From Verrucomicrobiota bacterium (GTDB lineage Bacteria; Verrucomicrobiota; Kiritimatiellia; Kiritimatiellales; Pontiellaceae): a stretch of DNA of 64,000 nucleotides. This document shows positions 1,148 to 36,319 of the stretch, piece after piece; within the stretch, counting starts at the first letter, position 1, and each line of letters opens with the position of its first letter. A program made the translations under genes and the position numbers. The notes under the pieces were generated by a model. The model had not been told where the DNA came from. It worked only from the letters and a program-made list of their open reading frames with translations, and did no database searches. The DNA is taken from NCBI GenBank assembly GCA_024279685.1, contig JAJRRI010000035.1, forward strand, positions 3,081-67,080. The letters run 5' to 3'.

Positions 1148-1792
1148 GTGGGATCCAACAACGAACTGATCGAAGAACCCCCATCCACACCGCGCTCATC
1201 GCGCCCGCTGATGATTGTCGTGTCCGCGCCATCCGGCGCGGGTAAGAGCACGTTATGCAATCGGCTGATCGATGAGTTTTCCAGAGTAAGCTACTCCGTT
1301 TCCTGCACCACACGCGCACCGCGAGGAGCAGAAAAAGATGGCGAGCATTATTATTTCCTCTCCAAGAAGGAATTTAAGGAGCGGATTAAAAATAATGAGT
1401 TTTTGGAGTATGCCAAGGTGCATGGAAATTTTTACGGTACGCTCGGAGATACCGTGCTTTATGCGATGGAGGAGGGAAAGCACGTGCTGCTCGATATCGA
1501 TGTTCAGGGCGTGAATCAACTTCGGAAATCACTCATTCATCTCGATTCGCGCAATCCAATCCGCCGTGGATTTACCGATATTTTTATTTCGCCGCCGTCG
1601 CATGAGGAGCTTGAAAAGCGTTTGCGCGGTCGTGGAACGGATGATGAGAAAGTCATCCAGCAGCGACTGGATAATGCCACGGCCGAAATGGCCTGCGCTA
1701 AAGAGTATTCCTTTCAAATCATCAACGACGATCTCGAAACCGCCTACGACGAACTCAAGAGGGTCATTCTTTCCAAAACCGAACGGGGGTGA
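1148..1792 (+). CDS. gmk: Guanylate kinase
   Basis: P-loop SAPSGAGKST, SCTTRAPR, EYAKVHGNFYGT, LDIDVQG. Confidence 0.96.
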   Translation: MGSNNELIEEPPSTPRSSRPLMIVVSAPSGAGKSTLCNRLIDEFSRVSYSVSCTTRAPRGAEKDGEHYYFLSKKEFKERIKNNEFLEYAKVHGNFYGTLGDTVLYAMEEGKHVLLDIDVQGVNQLRKSLIHLDSRNPIRRGFTDIFISPPSHEELEKRLRGRGTDDEKVIQQRLDNATAEMACAKEYSFQIINDDLETAYDELKRVILSKTERG

Positions 1793-1861
1793 GCGTAGAA
1801 TCCCTAAGCCTAAAGGTCTTCGGCAGATCTCTTTTTCTCTTCAATGAGTCGGGGGAAGGGT

Positions 1862-3313
1862 CTATTGGATTTTGAGGGCGAGCATGGTCATGTCGTCGTA
1901 TTGCCGAGTGCTTCCGGCGAAGGCGAGGACTTGTTCGCGGATCGTGTCGAGCAGGTCGTGGGCGGAGGCATCGGCCATACGTTCGACGGCTTGGATGAGA
2001 TTTTCAGTTCCCCATTCGGCCTGCTCGCTGTTAATGGCTTCGGTGATTCCGTCGGTGTAGGTGACGATCAGGTCGCCGGGGTGCAAGCTGATGCTTTTGG
2101 TTTCGATGGCCCTTGAAAAAATGTCGTGATCGACCAGTCCAATCACAATGCCCCCGCTTTCGGGTTGGCTCGCTTTGGGTTCTCCATTACGAATGATAAT
2201 CGGAGCCTCGTGACCGGCTCGTGCAAAGCTGAGCTGGTGAGGTTCAAGATTGAGTACCATGTAGAGCATACTGATGAACATGTCGTCGGCCAGGTTGCTG
2301 GCGAGGGTTTGGTTGAGCGAGCAGAGCATGGCAGCGGGGTCGTAAACATTGGGGGCGTTCACGCGCAGAACGCTGCGACAGACGGCCATCATCAGTGCGC
2401 CGCCCACGCCTTTTCCGCTGACATCGGCAATGGCGAGGCCGATGTGCTTGTCGTCGATCTCGATGCAGTCGTAGTAGTCGCCGCCGATCTCCATGGCGGG
2501 TAGATTGAAGGCGGCGAGTTCGATGGAGGGATAGAAGGGTAATTCCTTTGGGAGCAATGAGCTTTGAACCTGCTGGGCAATTTGCATATCGCGATCACGC
2601 TGCCGTTTGTCTTCGAGGGCTTCCTGGAGGCCTGCATAGTGGATCGGGACGGAGGCTTGTGCGGCGAGCGCCTGTGCGAGATTGAGATCAGGAAGGGCAA
2701 AGTGGCTGTCGTTGGTTCGGTTAACCAGGGTCATGATGCCGATGGTATGGTTGCCGAAGCGCATGGGTACCACGAGCATGGTGCGGATTTTTAAGAAATT
2801 TTGCGGGAGCTGGTAAACGCGCGCATCCATTTCTGCATCTTCGATAAGAATGGAGTTTCCGACTACAGCGGCTTCACCGATGAGTCCCTTGCCAAAAGGA
2901 ATTGGCATTTCTCGAATGATCCGTTCGAGTGTTTCGGCGGAAGTAGGAGAGAGATCCGGCACTCTAGATTTAGGCTCGAAGGGGGGCGGGAAGATCCCTG
3001 AAATTGCGCGCGCTTCGAGCTGTTCGGATGTGGAATCGACCATATGGATGGCCCCGGCGCCGGCCTTACAGGTGCGGACGGCATAGTGGAGTACGCGATC
3101 GAGCAGTGTATCCATGGCCACGCTTTCGGCATCGGCAAAAATTTCGCCGACATTTTGCACAAACCCGAGGGTGGCCTCCTTTTCTTGAAGCAGCACATCA
3201 CGTTCTTTTCTTAGCTGGCCGCGGCGTCGACGGCAGGAGAGAAAAAAGAGGATAACGAGGGCCGGGATGAAGAGCTTGAAGAAGAGGATTAACCCATGTG
3301 GAACTCCATGCAT
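1862..3313 (-). CDS. Membrane-anchored GAF domain plus PP2C (SpoIIE/RsbU family) serine phosphatase
   Basis: N-terminal hydrophobic helix, GAF region (GKGLIGEAA..LVVPMRFG), PP2C motifs IGGDYYD, IADVSGKG, YTDGITEA, DDMTMLAL. Confidence 0.9.
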   Translation of the reverse strand: MHGVPHGLILFFKLFIPALVILFFLSCRRRRGQLRKERDVLLQEKEATLGFVQNVGEIFADAESVAMDTLLDRVLHYAVRTCKAGAGAIHMVDSTSEQLEARAISGIFPPPFEPKSRVPDLSPTSAETLERIIREMPIPFGKGLIGEAAVVGNSILIEDAEMDARVYQLPQNFLKIRTMLVVPMRFGNHTIGIMTLVNRTNDSHFALPDLNLAQALAAQASVPIHYAGLQEALEDKRQRDRDMQIAQQVQSSLLPKELPFYPSIELAAFNLPAMEIGGDYYDCIEIDDKHIGLAIADVSGKGVGGALMMAVCRSVLRVNAPNVYDPAAMLCSLNQTLASNLADDMFISMLYMVLNLEPHQLSFARAGHEAPIIIRNGEPKASQPESGGIVIGLVDHDIFSRAIETKSISLHPGDLIVTYTDGITEAINSEQAEWGTENLIQAVERMADASAHDLLDTIREQVLAFAGSTRQYDDMTMLALKIQ

Positions 3314-3319
3314 GGGAAC

Positions 3320-3859
3320 CTACTGTGGGCCGAGGGTGCGGACGTCATTTTGAAGGAGTTCGAGAACCGACTTAAATTTGTCGTAATTTTCGGGATTGAT
3401 ATCGGCGAGGGTTTTATGGGCTTCGAGGGTCGTTTTTGCCGCATCAAGTTTGTCTGAAAAGTCGGATTCCAGAGTTTGGCGCTCTCCTTCTTGGCCCTCG
3501 ACTAATTTTTGTTCCTCGCCGGTGCTGGAGAGGGAATAGTCCACCACCCGATCGACGCCTAGCGTGATGAGTAGTTTTTGATTTTTATTCGATAGATTGA
3601 TGAGCTTGAATGTGATGTCGGGCTTGTCCTTAACGTGGTAGGCGAGCCCTGCCAGAACACCCATGAAGGTGCTGTCCATACCGATGCAGTCCGACATATC
3701 AATCAGGATGCGGTGAGCCGAATTGGACTGGATTACCTGATGAATAAACTGCTTCATGGACGGGCTAATTTTGAACGAACCGCGCCCTTCGATCCGGATC
3801 ACAGCGGTCTGGTCGATAAATGCCGCCGTCAGATTATCCTGGTGGTTGGCTGAAGCCAT
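3320..3859 (-). CDS. STAS-domain anti-sigma factor antagonist
   Basis: IRIEGRG, ILIDMSDCIGMDSTFMGVL with the phosphorylatable DS motif. Directly upstream of the PP2C gene. Confidence 0.85.
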   Translation of the reverse strand: MASANHQDNLTAAFIDQTAVIRIEGRGSFKISPSMKQFIHQVIQSNSAHRILIDMSDCIGMDSTFMGVLAGLAYHVKDKPDITFKLINLSNKNQKLLITLGVDRVVDYSLSSTGEEQKLVEGQEGERQTLESDFSDKLDAAKTTLEAHKTLADINPENYDKFKSVLELLQNDVRTLGPQ

Positions 3860-3999
3860 ACGTTCTGAATCCTCTACTTACTTGAACTACGAGAATACTA
3901 GCACCGCCGCATTTGAGTTCAACGTGAATAGTTGGGAAAAACCGAAACGAACCCTTTGAGAGCGAGCGTGTAAATAAGGACAGCACCTCCGGATTTTGT

Positions 4000-4677
4000 T
4001 CAGGAGGCGGGCTGTACGATCACGACGCACTCGCCTTTGACGTTCCGCCCCTCGTAGGAGTCCCGAATTTCGGCGGGCGTTCCGGCGGTCAGTTCCTCGA
4101 ACTTCTTGGTCAGTTCCCGCCCGGTAAATACCATGCGGTCAGCGCCCAGATGCTCTTCAATCTCGCCGAGTAGTTTGATGAAACGGTAGGGGGATTCGTA
4201 GAAGACCACCGGCAGATCGGCCTCCGCCCACTTGAGTAGGTCGCGTTTGCGGCCCCCGCTCTTATGCGGCAGAAAGCCGGCAAAGATAAATCCCTTCTCG
4301 CCAAAGCCGCTGAGTGCGATGGCGGTGGTGACAGCGGCTGGGCCGGGGATGGATGTGATCATCACCTCGGCTTTGCGACAAAGCGCGACCACCCGCGCAC
4401 CGGGGTCGGAGATGCCCGGCATGCCCGAATCGGTTACCATAGCAACGGCCTCTCCATTTTGAATTCGCTCAATAATTTGTTCGGACCGCTGCACCTCGTT
4501 AAATTTATGACAGCTCATCAGGCGCGTGGTAATTTCGTAGCGACCGGTCAGCCGCCGCGTATGGCGGGTATCCTCCGCTACAATCAGATCGGCTTCCTTT
4601 AGCGTTTCCAGTGCGCGGATCGAGAGGTCGCCCAAATTCCCGATCGGTGTGCCTACAATGTAAAGTCCTGCATCCAT
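4000..4677 (-). CDS. rsmI: 16S rRNA (cytidine1402-2'-O)-methyltransferase
   Basis: LYIVGTPIGNLGD, AEDTRHT, DSGMPGISDPG, FYESPYR, RELTKKFEE, KGECV. Confidence 0.96.
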   Translation of the reverse strand: MDAGLYIVGTPIGNLGDLSIRALETLKEADLIVAEDTRHTRRLTGRYEITTRLMSCHKFNEVQRSEQIIERIQNGEAVAMVTDSGMPGISDPGARVVALCRKAEVMITSIPGPAAVTTAIALSGFGEKGFIFAGFLPHKSGGRKRDLLKWAEADLPVVFYESPYRFIKLLGEIEEHLGADRMVFTGRELTKKFEELTAGTPAEIRDSYEGRNVKGECVVIVQPAS

Positions 4678-27965: not shown

Positions 27966-28142
27966 TTTTAGAGAGGGTTTAATTTGAAGTATATCCTTAT
28001 AGAATTCGATTGAGATAATGTAAATTTTATCTTGTGAGAGGGCGCTGATCAGTGTATTTATGAAGGATATTCAGTGGGAAAGGATTCTCATCTGATAATT
28101 CAGGTTAAACGTTTAGTTAACTTAAGTATGGAGGAGGCAGTG

Positions 28143-30197
28143 ATGAGGAAAAACAAAGGATGCAAACTATTTACGGCGATAGTGGCTTTTGTCATGATGG
28201 CCAGTCTATCGATGGGACAGCAGGATTTTCGCTACCGGCTGAGTGGGGATTGGTTCAATTTGCGAATGTCGACAGACGATTCGGGTTGGTACGAACCCGG
28301 CACGCTAGTCCCTCTCGCACCCGGAGTAGCGGACAACGCCCGAATAAACTGGGGCGGAAATACGGTAACGCTCACCAATGGCGCGGTCGTGGTGGGGGGG
28401 ATGCAATCGGGGTGGGATTCGCCCGGAACGTTGCTGATTGGTGCGGGCGGCGACTTGAGCACCAGCTTAAGTGTGGTTACGAACAACTCGGTGATTGGAT
28501 TTAACAATGTGGGCGTGTTGACCGTCGAAACGGGCGGTTCGGCTCTGTTTCGTTCGGACTTTTTGGTGGGGCAACAAGCCTCTGGAGTTGGCACGGTAAA
28601 TATTAATGGCGGAACCATTACGGTGGACGGCGAATTTCGTGCGGGAGATTTAGGCACCGGATCAATCTTTGTGAATGAGGGCGGCACTTTGAATCTGAGT
28701 GGCTTAGCCACCAACGGAATCGATTCGATCCGCGTGGGATCCAAACTGGATATTGTCGGTACCGGCCAAGTCATTATTTCGGGCGACGCGGAAGATACCG
28801 TGAACCTATATGTGGCCAATGGAACCCTTCTGGGAAATGGCGTAAGTAATAATGTGATTGTGCAGGTGACCTTCGGCGCAGAAACGAATACCACCATTAC
28901 CGCCATCGTGGTCGTGCCTAATGTCGTGGGTAGCTTCTTGGGTTCAGCAACGAATGCGATTCAAAATTTGGGTTATGTGACTGGAACCGTTGTTGATGGC
29001 TATGAGCCAGGCGTGCTATCGGGTGCGGTCATCGGGCAGGACCCGTTAGGCGGATCGAGCGCTGCGCCTGGAACGGTTGTAAACCTGATCATTCAGGAAC
29101 CCTTTCTTCCCGTCAGCGTTCAAGAGAATACGTGGTGGGGTCCTACCAGTGGCGATTGGTTGGCTGCCACGAACTGGAGTGCCGGCGTGGCTCCCATCCG
29201 GGAAACGCAGAACTATTCGGTCAGGCTTAGATTGGGGCCGATCGTAACCTTGACTAACTCGATTCGAGTCAGTTCATTGGAAGTTGGAACGAGGGCCACA
29301 CCTGGAACTCGGTTGACGATTTCAAATGGCGGGAGCCTCATTGGCGGCGGACGGGCGAATGGAGGCACAATCCATTGCTCCTTTGGCGTCAGTGCAGAAA
29401 CGGTTGTAACGGTTCAGACGAACTCGCTCTTGCAAACGCAATCCTTTGCTATTTTGGGGCACGGTATAGGCACACCAACCGATTACACGGTCACACTAAA
29501 TATTGATGGGGGAAGTTTTATTAGTAAAGACTGGATGGGGGTCGGATACCTCTCGAAGCAGATTTGGGGAGTGATCAATGTTGATAATGGCGGATACTTC
29601 GAAGTCCTTCGCTTTCACGATGGGCGCGACGGTGCGGGGAACTCGACGAATGGCGTGATTAACCTGAACCATGGCACGATGGTCATGAATGGGAATGCGA
29701 CGAACTTCATTAATGGAGCCATCGCAAATGGGTTTATTGCACCCAACCCAGATACACCTTATACGTTGGACTATAATGTGACGACCGCGGGTAAGACGAC
29801 CTTACGCCTTATACCCGCCAGCTATACGGCGTGGGCGGAAACCTGGGGCGTGGACATTGGCTCGGAAACCGATGACTATGACAACGATCAGGCGGATAAC
29901 CTCTGGGAATACGCCGCAAACGGAAACCCCACCAATGCTCAGGATACGGGAGTCGCTCCTGTGCTGGCAAATGATGCCGGAGTGCTGACGTATACTCACC
30001 TTGTGCGCGCTGACGACCTTAATCTCGTCTACACGGTACAAACCACAGGGATACTGACGCCGGCCAATTGGGTGGATACTGGGTCGACCGTTATTGGAAC
30101 GGAGGTCAGTGGCGGCGATTATAACACGGTGACTAACCTCGTTTCACCGGTGGCCGTCGATCAATCCTTCCTGCGTGTGGAAGTCGACAATCCCTAG
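28143..30197 (+). CDS. Secreted modular protein: two autotransporter/PEP-CTERM-type passenger modules, a central PASTA domain and a C-terminal DxDxD...FLRV domain
   Basis: RBS GGAGGAGG before ATG 28143, then a signal peptide. GxLTxxxGG beta-repeats. PASTA VPNVVG..IGQDP..GTVVNL at about 28911-29102. Terminal domain from 29823. Confidence 0.75.
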   Translation: MRKNKGCKLFTAIVAFVMMASLSMGQQDFRYRLSGDWFNLRMSTDDSGWYEPGTLVPLAPGVADNARINWGGNTVTLTNGAVVVGGMQSGWDSPGTLLIGAGGDLSTSLSVVTNNSVIGFNNVGVLTVETGGSALFRSDFLVGQQASGVGTVNINGGTITVDGEFRAGDLGTGSIFVNEGGTLNLSGLATNGIDSIRVGSKLDIVGTGQVIISGDAEDTVNLYVANGTLLGNGVSNNVIVQVTFGAETNTTITAIVVVPNVVGSFLGSATNAIQNLGYVTGTVVDGYEPGVLSGAVIGQDPLGGSSAAPGTVVNLIIQEPFLPVSVQENTWWGPTSGDWLAATNWSAGVAPIRETQNYSVRLRLGPIVTLTNSIRVSSLEVGTRATPGTRLTISNGGSLIGGGRANGGTIHCSFGVSAETVVTVQTNSLLQTQSFAILGHGIGTPTDYTVTLNIDGGSFISKDWMGVGYLSKQIWGVINVDNGGYFEVLRFHDGRDGAGNSTNGVINLNHGTMVMNGNATNFINGAIANGFIAPNPDTPYTLDYNVTTAGKTTLRLIPASYTAWAETWGVDIGSETDDYDNDQADNLWEYAANGNPTNAQDTGVAPVLANDAGVLTYTHLVRADDLNLVYTVQTTGILTPANWVDTGSTVIGTEVSGGDYNTVTNLVSPVAVDQSFLRVEVDNP

Positions 30198-30211
30198 TCG
30201 GATAAAAATCA

Positions 30212-30236
30212 GAGCGGGGGGAATCTTCCCCCGCTC
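30212..30236 (+). terminator. GC-rich hairpin, probable intrinsic terminator
   Basis: GAGCGGGGG-gaatctt-CCCCCGCTC 15 nt after the stop. Weak U-tract. Confidence 0.55.
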
Positions 30237-30309
30237 CTTATACTCCGTTTTAGAAAAAATATTGTGGTGAGCGGAATAAGCCACTCACCTAAAAAAAAGG
30301 AACATACAT

Positions 30310-31242
30310 ATGAATAAAAAACTACTGATGGGACTCGTATTTTGCGGCATGGCCGTAGGTAGCGCAAATGCGCTATTTTATCGAGGTAGCGGAAATTGGA
30401 CAGATACGACACCTTCCGCTCCCGGCCCCGGCTGGCAGTCGACTGTGCCAGGCTCAACGGACACTGCCGAGCTGAGACTGGGCAATACCGTGACGCTAGG
30501 CTATGCAGCGCCCAGCGTGGCAAGCCTGCAGATCGGCCGAGGAAGAACCGGGTTTACGGATGACCGTTCCGGCACGTTGAACATTCAAAGTGGTGGAAGC
30601 GTGACCTCCTCCGGCGACATTATAGTCGGCTTGAGCGGAAACACGGCGGCCCCAGTGGCTAACTACCAAGGTACGCTTAATATTAATGCGGGTGGATTGT
30701 TAACCGGGCTCACTTCCATGCGGGTCGGCGACCAGACGGGCGACGGCCCAGACGTTGGAGTCGGTGTTGTGGTGGTAGATGGAACTCTAACTCTCGCTCA
30801 GCACTTGTGGTTTGGCCGTCTTGGCGGAATCGGTACCATGACGATCAATAACGGCGGCGTGGTAAATGTAGGCGGAGGCCTTGGTCTTGGAACTTCGAAT
30901 GGTCTGGCTCCTTCGGGCGGAACCGGCACCCTTACGGTTGAAAGCGGCGGTCTGCTGGCGTTGAACACCTGGAATAATGATGGCACGAACGCGATTCAAT
31001 CGGGATCTGTGCTGAATATTAATGGAACCGGTGTGGTGACCATAAACGGAGACCGTCTTGCTTCGGCTGATTCCTACATTGCAGCGGGAAAGATTCTTAC
31101 GGATGACGTCAGTCTTTCGGTTACGTACGATACGGTATCGGATGTTACCACGATCGTAGCCATTCCAGAACCTGCAACGCTCGGAATGGTTGCGGCCTTT
31201 GGTGGTGCTTTGATCTTCATTCGTCGCAGAATGTCCATCTAA
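30310..31242 (+). CDS. PEP-CTERM sorting-domain protein
   Basis: Signal peptide (..AVGSANA), passenger beta-repeats, C-terminal IPEPATLGMVAAFGGALIFIRRRMSI. Confidence 0.92.
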   Translation: MNKKLLMGLVFCGMAVGSANALFYRGSGNWTDTTPSAPGPGWQSTVPGSTDTAELRLGNTVTLGYAAPSVASLQIGRGRTGFTDDRSGTLNIQSGGSVTSSGDIIVGLSGNTAAPVANYQGTLNINAGGLLTGLTSMRVGDQTGDGPDVGVGVVVVDGTLTLAQHLWFGRLGGIGTMTINNGGVVNVGGGLGLGTSNGLAPSGGTGTLTVESGGLLALNTWNNDGTNAIQSGSVLNINGTGVVTINGDRLASADSYIAAGKILTDDVSLSVTYDTVSDVTTIVAIPEPATLGMVAAFGGALIFIRRRMSI

Positions 31243-31277: not shown

Positions 31278-31303
31278 GGCGGCAGAGGTTTTCCTCTGTC
31301 GCC
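31278..31303 (+). terminator. Intrinsic terminator
   Basis: GGCGGCAGAGG-tttt-CCTCTGTCGCC followed by ATTTT. Confidence 0.7.
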
Positions 31304-31551: not shown

Positions 31552-34431
31552 ATGATGATAAATAAAAACAGAAAAATACGATTTAATCCGACGGCCTTCT
31601 TAATAAGTGCGGTTCTATTCGCTTCGGGGGGTGCGCTAAAAACAGATGCAGCGGTTCTATTGTCCGACGGGATGGATTATGCGAACGATACGACCCTTCA
31701 AAGTGCCTGGACGAGTGTCCACGGAAATGGAAATGTTAAAACTCAAACTTCGTATACGCCCGCGCCTTTGGCGGGGCAGTCGGATAGTCCGGTTTCAGGA
31801 AAGTTTATGGAACTGGACAATCAAGTGGTCTATCGGGAGTTGTCGGCCAATACCGCCGGCGACTGGAGTCTGAGTGCGAAATTACTCCATAACACGTACG
31901 GTCGGCGGCTGATTGTTTTTTTGCTGAATGAAACCGGAACGCAGGGATATGGGATGCTTTGGGACTCTGCCCAGGTGAGTAGCTCCGGCGGGGAAGGATT
32001 CTATCGAATCAGAAAATTCGATAACTCCAGCTATACCGATTGGACCACGTTTGGAAACGGAATTTCAATTCCTGGGGATTGGCCGAGCTCTCATCCGATC
32101 ACCGGATATGCCGTGACGAGTGCGCCGAGTTCAGATCAAGATACAGCGACGTATGATACTGCTTCTTGGGCCGATTTTGTTTCCCTCCGGCTGGAATGGA
32201 CAGCGGCAACCGGAACGCTTACGTTATTCGAAAATAATGTTCAGGTGGGACAGGTCGTTGATACGAGTTTTACGAATTTTAAACGTATTTATCTGAGTGG
32301 AAATACCGCTGGATTTTTTGACGATATTGAACTCAACGGTACTTTTTACATGGGGGGTTATGCGGGGTGGGCGGCAAGCTACCCTGCTCTGGTTGGGGGG
32401 GAATCGGATGACGAGGATAACGATGGCTTATCGAATTTAGAAGAATATGCGCTAGGCGGAAATCCAACGAATGCCAACGATATCGGTTATGTTCCAACCA
32501 CGGGGGTTTCGGGCGATTTCTTTGAAGTGATTCATGTGCGCCGTATCGCAGCGGCGAACGAACTGCTCTACTATTTGGAGCAGAACGAGGATCTGGTGGC
32601 TAGCCCGGGATGGGATAGAACCGGGGAATATGAGATCACGGGGATAGGCCCCTTTCCGGCTAATCCAGAATTTGAAGTCGTGACGAATCAGATTTCGATG
32701 GTGGGTAATTCGCAAGAATTTTTTCAGTTGAAGGTCAGTAATCGTTCGGATCCATTTCCTCCGCTGTTCAATACAACCACGTTTGGGGCCACCGTTCCAT
32801 TTGTCACTTTGGAAGGCGAGGATGCTGCGGCCACCAGCGGTTCTATCGTTCAGTTAGGCGCTCCGTATCCGTGGCCATCGACCCCCGCACAGGAAGCTTC
32901 TGGACGGGCGTTTGTTGAATTGGATAGTACGGGAGAATATGTTGAATTTAATGTGCCGGCCGACGCCGATGGGATGGTGATTCGCCACTGTATTCCGGAT
33001 GCGCCCGGGGGTGGGGGAATGAGCGCCACGTTGGGGCTCTATGTGAACGGAGTACGCGTTCAGGACGTGAATCTCTCGTCTAAATTTAACTGGCTCTACA
33101 TCACCGATCCCACGCCGTATTCAAACGGACAGGACAATACGCCCAATGGCTTCCCGCATGTCTTTTGGGATGAAACCCGGTTGCTTATTTCGGGCGGCGT
33201 TGTGGCGGGCGATGTAATCCGCCTCCAGAAGGATGCGGGCGATACGGCGGCCTATTACCGGATTGATTTGGTGGAGCTTGAAGAAGTTCCGCCGCCGCTG
33301 ACCCAGCCGGCCAACTCGCTTTCGATCGCCGATTATGGCGCTGACGGCTCTTCGGCCGCCAACGATACGCCTGCGATCAAAAACTGTATTGCCGCCGCGC
33401 AAGCTCAGGGGAAAACGGTTTGGTTCCCGGTTGGTACGTTTTTGCAGGATGAATATTTTACATTGACTGGAGTCAGGGTGCAGGGCGCCGGGATGTGGCA
33501 CACGACCTTGTCCGACACCGTGGGAGATGCTGGCACGAATGGGAGGGGGCATTTTGGCTTTTATCTTCAGGGGGATGGCCCTGGGGTTTCTGACATGATG
33601 CTTAATAGTTTGGAAAATACACGCCGCCAGGGGAACTCTCCAAGACCGCTTTTTGGACGGTCAAATAATTGGGCCGTCGAACGGGTGTGGATCACGCATA
33701 CGGCATACGGCATGTGGCTGGCCGGGAACAATGGCGTGGTTCGAGACTGCCGCGTTCGGTTTACCTATGCGGATGGCATTAATGTGAATGACGGCAGTGC
33801 ACATGAGTTGAACAATGTGCTGGTCGAAAATAACCATGTGCGCGGAACGGGTGACGATGGCATTGCGGTACTGGCTCACATGTCTTCCCCCGGGAAGGTC
33901 AGCCAGATTACGGTGCGCCATAATACGGTGATCGCTCCCTATTGGGCGGCCAATCTGGATATGACGGGGGGAACGGATATTCTGATGCATAATAATGTCC
34001 TCGCGGACGGCGGTGGGTTTGTAGTGAATCTACCCAGTGCATACGGAATGGAACCGCTGGACAATGCGCTCTTTACCTATAATAAAATTATGCGGTGCGG
34101 TTATATTTCTGGGGGAGGGGGGCAGCGGCGCGGGGCCATTTGGATTCTTCCAAATACGTCTTCACTCAGTGATTTTCGGATCGAAAACAACGTGGTGGAA
34201 GACGCCCTCTACCATGGGATTGAAATTGTGGGAACTCAGTTCCAGGAGATCCTCTTTAAAAATAATACCATTAACAATAGCGGCCGCAAGGCGGTTTCGA
34301 TTGGCTCGTCGGCAAATGGAATAGGCACGTTCGAGGACAACGTATCCACGGGATCCAGTGAGTTGCCGTACTTCGATAATAATTCAGGAACCTACACCGT
34401 CGTGGATGACGGTAGTAATAGCTGGAACTGA
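31552..34431 (+). CDS. Secreted multidomain GH87-like (alpha-1,3-glucanase/mycodextranase-type) beta-helix glycoside hydrolase with an N-terminal beta-sandwich and an internal DxDxD...FFQL domain
   Basis: Signal peptide. GATVPFVTLEGED, QEASGRAFVEL, VIRHCIPD, GAGMWHT, YADGIN and RGTGDDGIA match GH87 catalytic modules as recalled. Internal domain at 32359-32739. Confidence 0.78.
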   Translation: MMINKNRKIRFNPTAFLISAVLFASGGALKTDAAVLLSDGMDYANDTTLQSAWTSVHGNGNVKTQTSYTPAPLAGQSDSPVSGKFMELDNQVVYRELSANTAGDWSLSAKLLHNTYGRRLIVFLLNETGTQGYGMLWDSAQVSSSGGEGFYRIRKFDNSSYTDWTTFGNGISIPGDWPSSHPITGYAVTSAPSSDQDTATYDTASWADFVSLRLEWTAATGTLTLFENNVQVGQVVDTSFTNFKRIYLSGNTAGFFDDIELNGTFYMGGYAGWAASYPALVGGESDDEDNDGLSNLEEYALGGNPTNANDIGYVPTTGVSGDFFEVIHVRRIAAANELLYYLEQNEDLVASPGWDRTGEYEITGIGPFPANPEFEVVTNQISMVGNSQEFFQLKVSNRSDPFPPLFNTTTFGATVPFVTLEGEDAAATSGSIVQLGAPYPWPSTPAQEASGRAFVELDSTGEYVEFNVPADADGMVIRHCIPDAPGGGGMSATLGLYVNGVRVQDVNLSSKFNWLYITDPTPYSNGQDNTPNGFPHVFWDETRLLISGGVVAGDVIRLQKDAGDTAAYYRIDLVELEEVPPPLTQPANSLSIADYGADGSSAANDTPAIKNCIAAAQAQGKTVWFPVGTFLQDEYFTLTGVRVQGAGMWHTTLSDTVGDAGTNGRGHFGFYLQGDGPGVSDMMLNSLENTRRQGNSPRPLFGRSNNWAVERVWITHTAYGMWLAGNNGVVRDCRVRFTYADGINVNDGSAHELNNVLVENNHVRGTGDDGIAVLAHMSSPGKVSQITVRHNTVIAPYWAANLDMTGGTDILMHNNVLADGGGFVVNLPSAYGMEPLDNALFTYNKIMRCGYISGGGGQRRGAIWILPNTSSLSDFRIENNVVEDALYHGIEIVGTQFQEILFKNNTINNSGRKAVSIGSSANGIGTFEDNVSTGSSELPYFDNNSGTYTVVDDGSNSWN

Positions 34432-34516
34432 TGACTTCCCCTCCGTTTTAACCCTCTTGAAAAAAGGGGGCGGCGGGGCTGAAAAATAAATAGAGCACCA
34501 TGTGGAGTATAAAATA

Positions 34517-36319
34517 ATGAAAATCGATTTTAGGTTTAGTGTGGCGGTTCTTACCCTGGCGATAGGGGGCGGGGTTTCCCCGGTGGAAGCGGGGGTTGCG
34601 ACGTTGACGAAGGACCGGGTCGCTGAGGGTAAAGTTTGGGTGCCCCGGGCGTTAGTGAATACGAATGTTTTTGGGGCAACGGTTCCATTTGTCACACTCG
34701 AAGGTGAGGATGGTTCTTCAAATGGCTCGGTGGTTCAGCTGGGGACGCCTTTTCCTTGGCCGTCCGTTCCTGCTCAGGAGGCTTCAGGTCGTGCGTTTGT
34801 TGAATTAGAAAACACGGGCGAATACGTGGAGTTTAAGGTGTCTGATAAAGCGAATACCTTGGTGATTCGCCACTGCATCCCTGATGCCTCCGAGGGCGGG
34901 GGCATTACGGCCTCGCTGGGATTGTATATAAATGGAACCCGCGTGCAAAACCTCAGTCTCTCCTCCAAATTTAACTGGGTGTATATTACGAATCCGAGGC
35001 CGTATTCAAATGGGCATGACAATACGCCGAATGGCTTCCCGCATATGTTTTGGGATGAAACGCGATTTTTCCTCTCGCAGGAGGTGAAAGCGGGCGACGT
35101 AATTCGCCTCCAAAAAGATGCGGATGATACGGCGGCATACTATCGCATTGATTTGATAGAGCTCGAAGACGTTGCGCCAGCCCTCCAACAACCTGAAGGG
35201 TCTTTGTCGATTGTTGATTATGGCGCCACCGGGCAGTCGGCGGATATCGATACCCCCGCGATTAAGAAGTGTATTGCGGCGGCAAAAGCGGAAGGTAAAA
35301 CGGTTTGGTTTCCGGCCGGTACGTATTTTCAAAATGAATATTTTGTATTGGACGGAGTCAAGGTGCAGGGCGCCGGGATGTGGCACACCACGTTGTCCGA
35401 TGTCGTGGGCAATGCCGCGACGGGCTGGAAGGCGAACTCTGGGTTTTGGTTTGGTGGTGTTGGACCGAGTGTTTCTGACCTAACGTTTAATAGTATCGCC
35501 AATACCCGCCGTCATCTAGGGGCTCCAAAGTCATTCTTCGGAAACTCACGAGATTGGTCGGTTGAACGGGTTTGGGTAACGCATACCGGAACCGGCATGT
35601 GGCTCGCAGGGCAGAACGGGGTTATTCGAGATTGCCGGATCCGCTTCACCTACGCTGACGGGATTAACGTGAATAACGGAAATACTTTTTATTCGGTCGA
35701 TAATGTGTTGGTCGAAAATAACCATGTGCGCGGAGCGGGCGATGATAGCATTGCGATTTTAGCTCATGGAGACTCGACCGGCGGCGTTTCCCGAGTCACG
35801 GTTCGCCATAACACCGTGGTGGCCGATTGGTGGGGAGCGAGTTTGGATATGACGGGCGGGAATGACCATCTCGTTCATAACAATCTAATTTTAGATGGAG
35901 GTGGATTTGTGATCAATCTGCCTGGAGCTTATCCGATGATCGCGTTGAGCGATAGTCTCTTTGCTTATAATAAGATTATACGCTGTGGAAAACGGTATGG
36001 AACGACGTCGGCCTTGGAGCGCGGGGCTCTTTGGGTTTTTCCATCGACGGCGGGGATTCAGAATTTAAGAATCGAGAATAACTGGATTGAAGATTCCTTT
36101 TATCACGGGATTCATGTGACTGGAGATGAACCTCAAGAGATTTACTTTAAGAATAATAAAATTGGACGGAGTGGTCGGGAAGCGGTCTTTATCTCTTCCT
36201 CAGCCGTCGGGACGGGAACGTTTGAAGGCAATGTATCCAGAGAATCTGGAGCCGCCTCGCCCCTGGTAAACCGCTCCAAAAAGTATAAAGTGACCGACCT
36301 AAATAACGATTGGGAGTAA
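34517..36319 (+). CDS. Secreted GH87-like glycoside hydrolase, paralog of the preceding catalytic module
   Basis: Signal peptide from ATG 34517. Same motifs: GATVPFVTLEGED, QEASGRAFVEL, YADGIN, RGAGDDSIA. Near-identical DNTPNGFPH.FWDETR segment. Confidence 0.8.
   Translation: MKIDFRFSVAVLTLAIGGGVSPVEAGVATLTKDRVAEGKVWVPRALVNTNVFGATVPFVTLEGEDGSSNGSVVQLGTPFPWPSVPAQEASGRAFVELENTGEYVEFKVSDKANTLVIRHCIPDASEGGGITASLGLYINGTRVQNLSLSSKFNWVYITNPRPYSNGHDNTPNGFPHMFWDETRFFLSQEVKAGDVIRLQKDADDTAAYYRIDLIELEDVAPALQQPEGSLSIVDYGATGQSADIDTPAIKKCIAAAKAEGKTVWFPAGTYFQNEYFVLDGVKVQGAGMWHTTLSDVVGNAATGWKANSGFWFGGVGPSVSDLTFNSIANTRRHLGAPKSFFGNSRDWSVERVWVTHTGTGMWLAGQNGVIRDCRIRFTYADGINVNNGNTFYSVDNVLVENNHVRGAGDDSIAILAHGDSTGGVSRVTVRHNTVVADWWGASLDMTGGNDHLVHNNLILDGGGFVINLPGAYPMIALSDSLFAYNKIIRCGKRYGTTSALERGALWVFPSTAGIQNLRIENNWIEDSFYHGIHVTGDEPQEIYFKNNKIGRSGREAVFISSSAVGTGTFEGNVSRESGAASPLVNRSKKYKVTDLNNDWE

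Follow-up and report, generated by a model that had tools for sequence, protein, structure and literature searches.

Can a domain that normally closes secreted proteins at their very C-terminus still serve as a working module when it lies in the middle of an enzyme? This question is raised by a gene (31552..34431, plus strand, stop included) in a stretch of 64,000 nucleotides, hereafter the window, from a Verrucomicrobiota bacterium of the Pontiellaceae (assembly GCA_024279685.1, contig JAJRRI010000035.1, positions 3,081 to 67,080). Its reading frame, open for 959 codons, joins a lectin-like module, a domain of about 130 amino acids (aa) that elsewhere is nearly always terminal, and a catalytic unit of glycoside hydrolase family 87 (GH87; alpha-1,3-glucanases and mycodextranases). 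Our comparisons indicate that the 959-aa protein stems from a genuine gene fusion, old and specific to its lineage, and conservation and structure prediction indicate that the domain has been kept mid-protein as an intact, folded and selected module. The fusion is a new arrangement of modules in a known kind of enzyme, domain shuffling in carbohydrate-active enzymes (CAZymes) being an ordinary event.

The initial annotation of this locus had recognised within the fusion protein a copy of the domain that ends the product of a nearby gene, and this was borne out: residues 270-397 align by BLASTP with residues 584-706, the last ones, of the 707-aa product of 28074..30197 (46 of 129 identical, 36%, E 2e-16), whose terminal copy (29823..30191, plus strand; BLASTP and profile) is followed by the stop one residue later. 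All the motifs listed in that annotation are present in the internal copy, namely Y.GWA, DDEDNDGLSNLEEY..GGNPTN, VIHVRR, YYLEQ..DL....W, VTN and EFFQLKV. As delimited by BLASTP, profile and an AlphaFold2 (AF2) model, the internal domain spans aa 268-397 (32353..32742, plus strand) and comprises two short helices, a DxDxDG calcium loop and an immunoglobulin (Ig)-like sandwich of six strands. The loop motif DDEDNDGLSNLEEY (aa 286-299, 32407..32448, plus strand) is similar to those of TSP3 repeats and EF-hands. No model in Pfam or NCBIfam covers the domain, the loop alone giving a match to the bacterial TSP3 repeat (TSP3_bac, PF18884; aa 287-308, E 0.043) that lies below the gathering cut-off (14.1 bits against 25). 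A full-text search found nothing relevant in the literature on the domain or on GH87 in Kiritimatiellota.

The domain is preceded by a Sec-type signal peptide (aa 1-33, 31552..31650, plus strand), read from the translation as KNRKIR, the hydrophobic core TAFLISAVLFASGGAL and a probable cleavage site KTDA|AV, and by what we call the N-module (aa 34-265, 31651..32346, plus strand). The latter has no Pfam or NCBIfam match, but its AF2 model (pLDDT 70, pTM 0.74) is a beta-jelly-roll of the concanavalin A (ConA)/lectin type, with CBM66 (4e-6), legume-lectin-like domains and galectins as top Foldseek matches, so that it is probably a carbohydrate-binding module.

Downstream of the domain 562 residues follow, the frame running without a stop, as had been proposed, into a complete GH87 module (aa 406-959, 32767..34428, plus strand). 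This consists of a galactose-binding-like domain (aa 415-579; CatAgl_D1, 6e-42, 143.7 bits) and a right-handed beta-helix (aa 618-914; CatAgl_D2, 4e-16, 59.4 bits; gathering cut-off 27), the two domains being described after PMC6814745, and it matches the solved GH87 units 7c7d (aa 404-957, 3.3e-50), 5zru (2.6e-48) and 6k0m (9e-38). Asp741 (33772..33774, plus strand, in FTYADGINVN) aligns with the first Asp of the catalytic motif (TADGLNLN in 7c7d, TFADGINM in 6k0m) and Asp768-Asp769 (33853..33858, plus strand, in RGTGDDGIAV) with the GDD catalytic pair of both structures, a site at which PDB entry 6k0s has GDA in place of the GDD of 6k0m. Judging from motifs and spacing, these residues would be equivalent to the catalytic triad of Agl-KA (Asp1067, Asp1090 and Asp1091; PMC6814745). 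The fusion protein is thus a GH87 member by every sequence criterion tested, and its catalytic unit looks competent. The next gene (34502..36319, plus strand; translation, Pfam, BLASTP) encodes, also as annotated, the GH87 module alone, as a paralog of 605 aa with its own signal peptide, identical to the unit of the fusion at 358 of 550 positions (65%).

How strictly terminal the domain is elsewhere can be judged from three counts. A first profile, built from nine aligned copies of the window's own genome (a metagenome-assembled genome, MAG, of 2.69 Mb in 178 contigs, 94% complete and with 2.4% contamination), matched 12,264 of 1.84 billion representatives of 50%-identity clusters at E<=1e-3, and 2,155 at E<=1e-10, the named carriers being mostly Pontiella, Tichowtungia and other Kiritimatiellales, plus Verrucomicrobiota MAGs. 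Among the best 150 of the 12,264 representatives, 144 bear the domain at the end (no more than 6 residues from the C-terminus), four bear a full-length internal copy and two a partial match to the TSP3-like part only. A six-frame scan of 79 named loci rendered 94 terminal copies out of 95 at full length (stop within 12 codons), one internal copy (locus L062) and three partial ones; and in 169 collected proteins 157 copies are terminal, 10 are internal, in nine proteins of which three belong to the window's genome, and 15 are partial. The 157 terminal copies leave 0 (57 copies), 1 (60), 2 (30), 3 (6), 5 (2) or 6 (2) residues before the C-terminus, and terminal copies typically finish with FIRLxI(E) plus 0-3 residues. 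The domain is therefore of terminal type, with at least 94% of its full-length copies stopping 0-6 residues later. That it might be routinely internal is rejected by these counts (144/150, 94/95 and 157/167), and its description in the initial annotation as a terminal-type domain is upheld. In the window's genome there are eight terminal and three internal copies, every internal one in a GH87 fusion.

Internal copies are rare, yet they recur in a few unrelated architectures. Those among the best 150 representatives are P0004, a paralog from the window's own genome, P0152, P0018 and P0055. In P0018 and P0055 the domain lies within repeated units, and in P0163-165 it is followed by PKD or another tail. 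P0152 is composed of CBM96 and a SASA esterase, the domain and a beta-helix, while L062 (2251-5439) has a lectin-like module, the domain, a beta-helix and a CBM6-like module. The unit formed by the domain and the pectate-lyase-like beta-helix is 33% identical between the two across the junction, their N-terminal parts being unrelated, and on this alignment P0152 and L062 represent another lineage of internal copies, independent of the GH87 fusions and older. A further open reading frame (ORF) of 916 aa (G000:C127:7207-9954, minus strand) gives a weak, partial internal match (profile positions 8-98, aa 627-726, independent E-value 3e-5) and may hold a degenerate internal copy.

Because the source is a MAG in 178 contigs, mis-assembly, or a missed stop or frameshift, might have joined two genes in the window. 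This is hardly credible and the artefact is rejected, since three diverged fusion genes, on contigs C38 (the window), C17 and C27, share the module order, the frame and the junction SDPF(SY)PL(F/L)NT.TFGATVPF. Identities among the three are 58-68% for the N-module, 66-73% for the domain, 75-92% for the linker, 75-78% for D1 and 59-68% for D2, the domain being no less conserved than the N-module and the beta-helix. In addition, the standard gene calls of the public protein collection are full-length for all three (P0001, P0003 and P0004), P0001 (958 aa, from the second Met) being the protein of the window, whose signal peptide is 82% identical in the paralog of C17. The GH87 part has neither a signal peptide nor a start of its own; the absence of the former also led us to reject an internal start that would give a separate GH87 product. 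The gene order of the window, namely 707-aa gene, PEP-CTERM gene and fusion gene, recurs in synteny on contig C27, where a sulfatase gene is inserted in addition.

The fusion was not found in relatives: among 60 related genomes GH87 is present in only four, in none of which does it carry the domain, and when 116 further listed GH87 homologues were checked against the domain profile, only the three fusions of this genome had the domain internally.

The initial annotation had described the domain as trapped, but it is not a dead relic. Decay is rejected by dN/dS values of 0.11-0.15 for the domain among the fusions, similar to those of the other modules and indicative of purifying selection, and by the retention of all conserved residues. 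Against the family profile the window copy covers positions 6-134 of 135 (independent E-value 1e-39), and it keeps all four invariant and 12 nearly invariant positions, the conserved residues being W11, D27, D29, N33, E36, G40, G41, P43, T44, Y78, L86, W92, VTN115-117 and L131. Of these, D27, D29, N33 and E36, in the calcium loop, are invariant or nearly so across 88 sequences. Against a control profile built from terminal copies only, the window copy scores 132-133 bits and the other two fusions 119-128 bits; terminal copies that were held out score 149 bits at the median and 128 at the 10th percentile, and the fusions lie inside the terminal range. By these scores the internal copy is a true member of the family, far beyond chance. 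The AF2 model of the domain, made with the 88 sequences, is confident (pLDDT 91.7) and displays the helices, loop and sandwich described above. A Foldseek comparison with the PDB rendered generic Ig-like sandwiches only, such as those of the major histocompatibility complex and beta-2-microglobulin, none at E<=1e-3 and no specific structural relative.

The origin of the fusion can be approached through proteins with the same modules in other arrangements. Apart from the fusions themselves, only P0002 (638 aa) shares the first 400 residues; it is composed of two N-modules followed by the domain at its extreme C-terminus. On contig L090 (Logan, SRR28720263) the gene of P0002 (628-2544) is followed, after 71 bp, by that of P0169 (2616-5096), an 826-aa protein with a signal peptide, an N-module and GH87 and without the domain. 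By its gene order and module content this arrangement represents the unfused state. The closest relatives of the internal domain of the window are also terminal copies, those of P0072, P0020 and P0002 (51% identity). Maximum-likelihood trees unite all four GH87 modules from this genome in a single clade (88/86), and likewise its three N-modules (100/99); in the first GH87 tree the three fused modules are each other's closest relatives (84/92), their sister is the stand-alone neighbour, and the stand-alone enzyme of G038, from another family of the order, falls outside. Taken together, the unfused arrangement, the terminal nearest relatives and the trees support one fusion followed by duplication. 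A gene for one or more lectin modules plus the terminal domain would have been joined to a GH87 gene that was either its neighbour or a duplicate, with loss of the stop codon, of the spacer and of the GH87 signal peptide; the order found in the window would result if a deletion ran from the end of the first gene into the second. The fused gene would then have multiplied to three copies.

The event can also be seen from the other side. In this GH87 clade the N-module is commonly found as the N-terminal partner (P0169, P0222, P0225, P0233, P0244, P0245, P0256, P0257 and P0266), and since it is widespread on GH87 enzymes without the domain, the event is equally describable as the landing of the domain in the linker between N-module and GH87. 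The proposal of the initial annotation that a once-complete secreted protein was fused with a duplicated hydrolase therefore stands in part: the fusion is genuine, P0002 is such a complete protein elsewhere and the GH87 modules form one clade, but the N-module by itself commonly accompanies GH87.

Three layouts besides that of the window occur in the clade. P0189, P0198 and P0212 (954-968 aa), among the 116 further GH87 homologues listed, consist of N-module, GH87 and a C-terminal domain ending one residue before the stop; others have N-module and GH87; the majority are GH87 alone; and the order N-module, domain, GH87 is found, among the homologues listed, in this genome only. The N-module is present three times in the two adjacent genes of L090, twice before the terminal domain and once joined directly to GH87, and the clustering of these three in the tree implies lineage-specific duplication or homogenisation. 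A further combination of accessory modules from the same bacterial order is that of an ORF of 1176 aa in locus L086 (G032:C195), a GH87 protein with an N-terminal beta-sandwich (of the type YSLE..S.L..W...FYRL) that has no calcium loop, and with a C-terminus that looks CBM6-like.

With regard to what the domain does in the fusion, the account to which we incline, with modest confidence, is that of an uncleaved enzyme in which the internal domain is still a functional module, be it a tether or a spacer. A single polypeptide would be exported through Sec, carrying the lectin-like module, the domain with its calcium loop and Ig-like sandwich, and the GH87 hydrolase. The lectin-like module would bind the substrate, and the domain would do internally what it does at protein ends, probably a calcium-dependent hold on a partner in the envelope or a glycan, or at least act as a rigid Ig-like spacer, so that binding module and catalytic unit would be kept together at the cell surface. 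The near-universal terminal position would then reflect shuffling at 3' ends of a cassette that includes the stop codon, and a free C-terminus would not be strictly required. The long survival of the internal copies and their evolutionary rate, equal to that of terminal ones, constitute the main argument against the free end being important: between the C38 and C27 loci the internal domains are 69% identical and the terminal ones 73%.

Several observations weigh against this account. The main argument for the free end being important is how tightly the family keeps to the terminal position; an end with 0-1 residues left in 117 of 157 copies is typical of sorting signals and not of spacers or binding modules, so that a terminal function may have been lost in the fusion. 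P0169 combines N-module and GH87 without the domain, which is thus not needed as a bridge. The fusion copies fall in the lower 7-18% of the score distribution of terminal copies, and they are without the usual acidic residue after the last strand (FFQLKVS or FTRLGVG against FIRLxIE). As for the history, the second GH87 tree resolves the interior of the clade only weakly, and the three copies could stem from co-binned relatives instead of one genome (the contamination estimate is 2.4%), which would leave the reality of the fusion unaffected.

The strictly terminal placement elsewhere, the lower scores and the altered tail of the last strand could all be understood if the internal copy had lost a sorting or attachment function and survived as a plain Ig-like spacer between binding module and catalytic unit. 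That the structural matches are generic Ig-like sandwiches points in the same direction, as does the GH87 enzyme Agl-EK14 of Flavobacterium, in which two Ig-like domains lie between the catalytic and lectin domains (PMC10696023). We regard such a loss of function as possible, if rather doubtful, since the calcium-loop residues and all other family-conserved positions have been kept, beyond what a hydrophobic core would need, since the rate of evolution of the internal copy is as low as that of the terminal one at the same pair of loci, and since enzymes of the P0169 type need no spacer.

The initial annotation had asked whether the domain might be an internal site of cleavage or of docking for enzyme assembly, and both roles are speculative. 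The linker itself allows an explanation of the former kind. The junction SNRSDPFPPLFNTTT (aa 396-410, 15 aa, 32737..32781, plus strand), defined by alignment of the three fusions and the stand-alone GH87, contains RSDPF, found in the fusions only, followed by L.NT..FGATVPF, with which the GH87 unit starts. It is the best-conserved short stretch among the fusions, and a cut at RSDPF after export would turn a pro-protein into a surface protein of lectin module plus terminal domain, thereby restoring the normal position of the latter, and a free GH87 enzyme like the product of the neighbouring gene; each half exists elsewhere as a separate protein. Nevertheless, the stretch contains no known protease motif and no processing enzyme was identified, a conserved linker of 15 residues fits a fixed contact between domains equally well, and P0152 and L062 have retained a direct junction of domain and beta-helix without RSDPF, so that we consider such processing unlikely. 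Quite unlikely as well, in our estimation, is the more far-reaching proposal of an undescribed pathway of Kiritimatiellota and Verrucomicrobiota for sorting or surface attachment, which would normally read a free C-terminus and for which the domain would serve as the tag on the cargo; in the fusions, cleavage at RSDPF would expose this tag. Were it true, one gene would give two products, a surface-held lectin and a GH87 enzyme released or held separately, and the series N-GH87-domain, N-GH87 and N-domain-GH87 would be a ready system for the positional rule of the pathway.

The protein can be compared with the multimodular GH87 alpha-1,3-glucanases, such as Agl-KA of Bacillus circulans, Agl-FH1 (PDB 6k0m), the enzyme of PDB 7c7d and Agl-EK14 of Flavobacterium sp. 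EK-14. The two-domain catalytic unit and the aligned aspartates of ADG...GDD are common to all, and the usual GH87 layout, with accessory binding modules N-terminal and the catalytic unit C-terminal as in Agl-KA (PMC6814745), is also that of the fusion. In contrast, identity to the known enzymes is only about 30%, and the accessory modules are discoidin, CBM6 and ricin domains in these, whereas the fusion has a ConA-like module and the uncurated calcium-loop/Ig-like domain. Agl-EK14, which is from a Gram-negative organism, bears at its C-terminus a sorting domain, the C-terminal domain (CTD) of the type IX secretion system (T9SS) (PMC10696023).

Such T9SS CTDs (Por_Secre_tail; TIGR04183, PF18962), carried by cargo proteins of Bacteroidota, resemble our domain in being small Ig-like beta-sandwiches at the extreme C-terminus of many unrelated secreted enzymes within one lineage. 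The domain differs from them in its additional N-terminal calcium-loop sub-domain, in its occurrence in Kiritimatiellales and Verrucomicrobiota and in being internal in the window fusion, which has no match to TIGR04183 or PF18962 at E<=0.1 in Pfam and NCBIfam searches. No SprA_N match, as a sign of the T9SS translocon (SprA/Sov), was found in the window's genome (G000), although the control genomes were silent too. A loop of the DxDxDG type followed by a short helix (DNDGLSNLEEY) is shared with dockerins (PF00404) and bacterial TSP3 repeats. Dockerins, for the most part terminal modules too, attach CAZymes to a scaffold. They differ from the domain in having a duplicated segment instead of a single loop, and the domain has about 90 further residues as a beta-sandwich and no known cohesin-like partner; the window fusion has one DxDxDG loop only and no match to PF00404. 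The likeness of the family to a terminal tag such as the T9SS CTD or dockerin is therefore to be taken as an analogy only. Finally, the Ig-like and Fn3 spacer ('X') modules of glycoside hydrolases also lie as sandwiches between binding and catalytic modules, as in the fusion, but these are free in position while the family considered here is at least 94% terminal.

The domain is found at the ends of many secreted enzymes with which Kiritimatiellales and Verrucomicrobiota, important degraders of marine sulfated glycans, break down polysaccharides, and it comprises more than 12,000 clusters for which no curated model exists. The interpretation of the secretomes of these bacteria therefore depends in part on whether it acts as sorting signal, anchor or mere spacer. 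A single GH87 clade in which the domain is terminal (P0189, P0198 and P0212), absent (P0169) or in mid-protein (the window fusion and its two paralogs) amounts to a natural permutation series. To compare localisation, processing and activity across it would require no artificial constructs; its main use would be testing whether the domain requires a free end.

As to the substrate, sulfatase genes lie beside the fusion genes on C17 and C27, with uronate genes also present in the genomic context, and in a congener (locus L089, G029:C57:6500-12500, minus strand, 4630..1364) a single ORF of 1089 aa encodes a signal peptide, a GH87-like unit and a sulfatase. The neighbouring sulfatases and the fusion of GH87 with sulfatase suggest that the substrate of this GH87-like clade is a sulfated glycan and not plain alpha-1,3-glucan.

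Upstream of the fusion gene, in 28074-31242, the 707-aa protein (repeat associated with the type V secretion system and PEP-CTERM, PASTA and the terminal domain) adjoins a 310-aa protein with the same type of repeat and a PEP-CTERM tail, and the pair recurs on C27 (54% and 45% identity). The genome has an exosortase gene and PEP-CTERM proteins, while the PEP-CTERM signature (a C-terminal PEP motif, a transmembrane helix and a basic tail) is absent from the 959-aa protein in Pfam and NCBIfam searches. Directly 3' of the 310-aa gene a consensus scan detected a terminator-like hairpin (31278..31303, plus strand; stem of 11 bp with 8 GC, T-rich tail), so that the fusion gene probably starts its own transcript. 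The fusion gene and the stand-alone GH87 gene, 70 bp apart, have no comparable hairpin between them and are therefore probably co-transcribed. Long antisense ORFs are found within both GH87 genes (33121-33552, 33661-33990 and 35006-35386, all on the minus strand) and on C17 too; they show no sign of being genes, and they recur because the two GH87 genes are paralogs.

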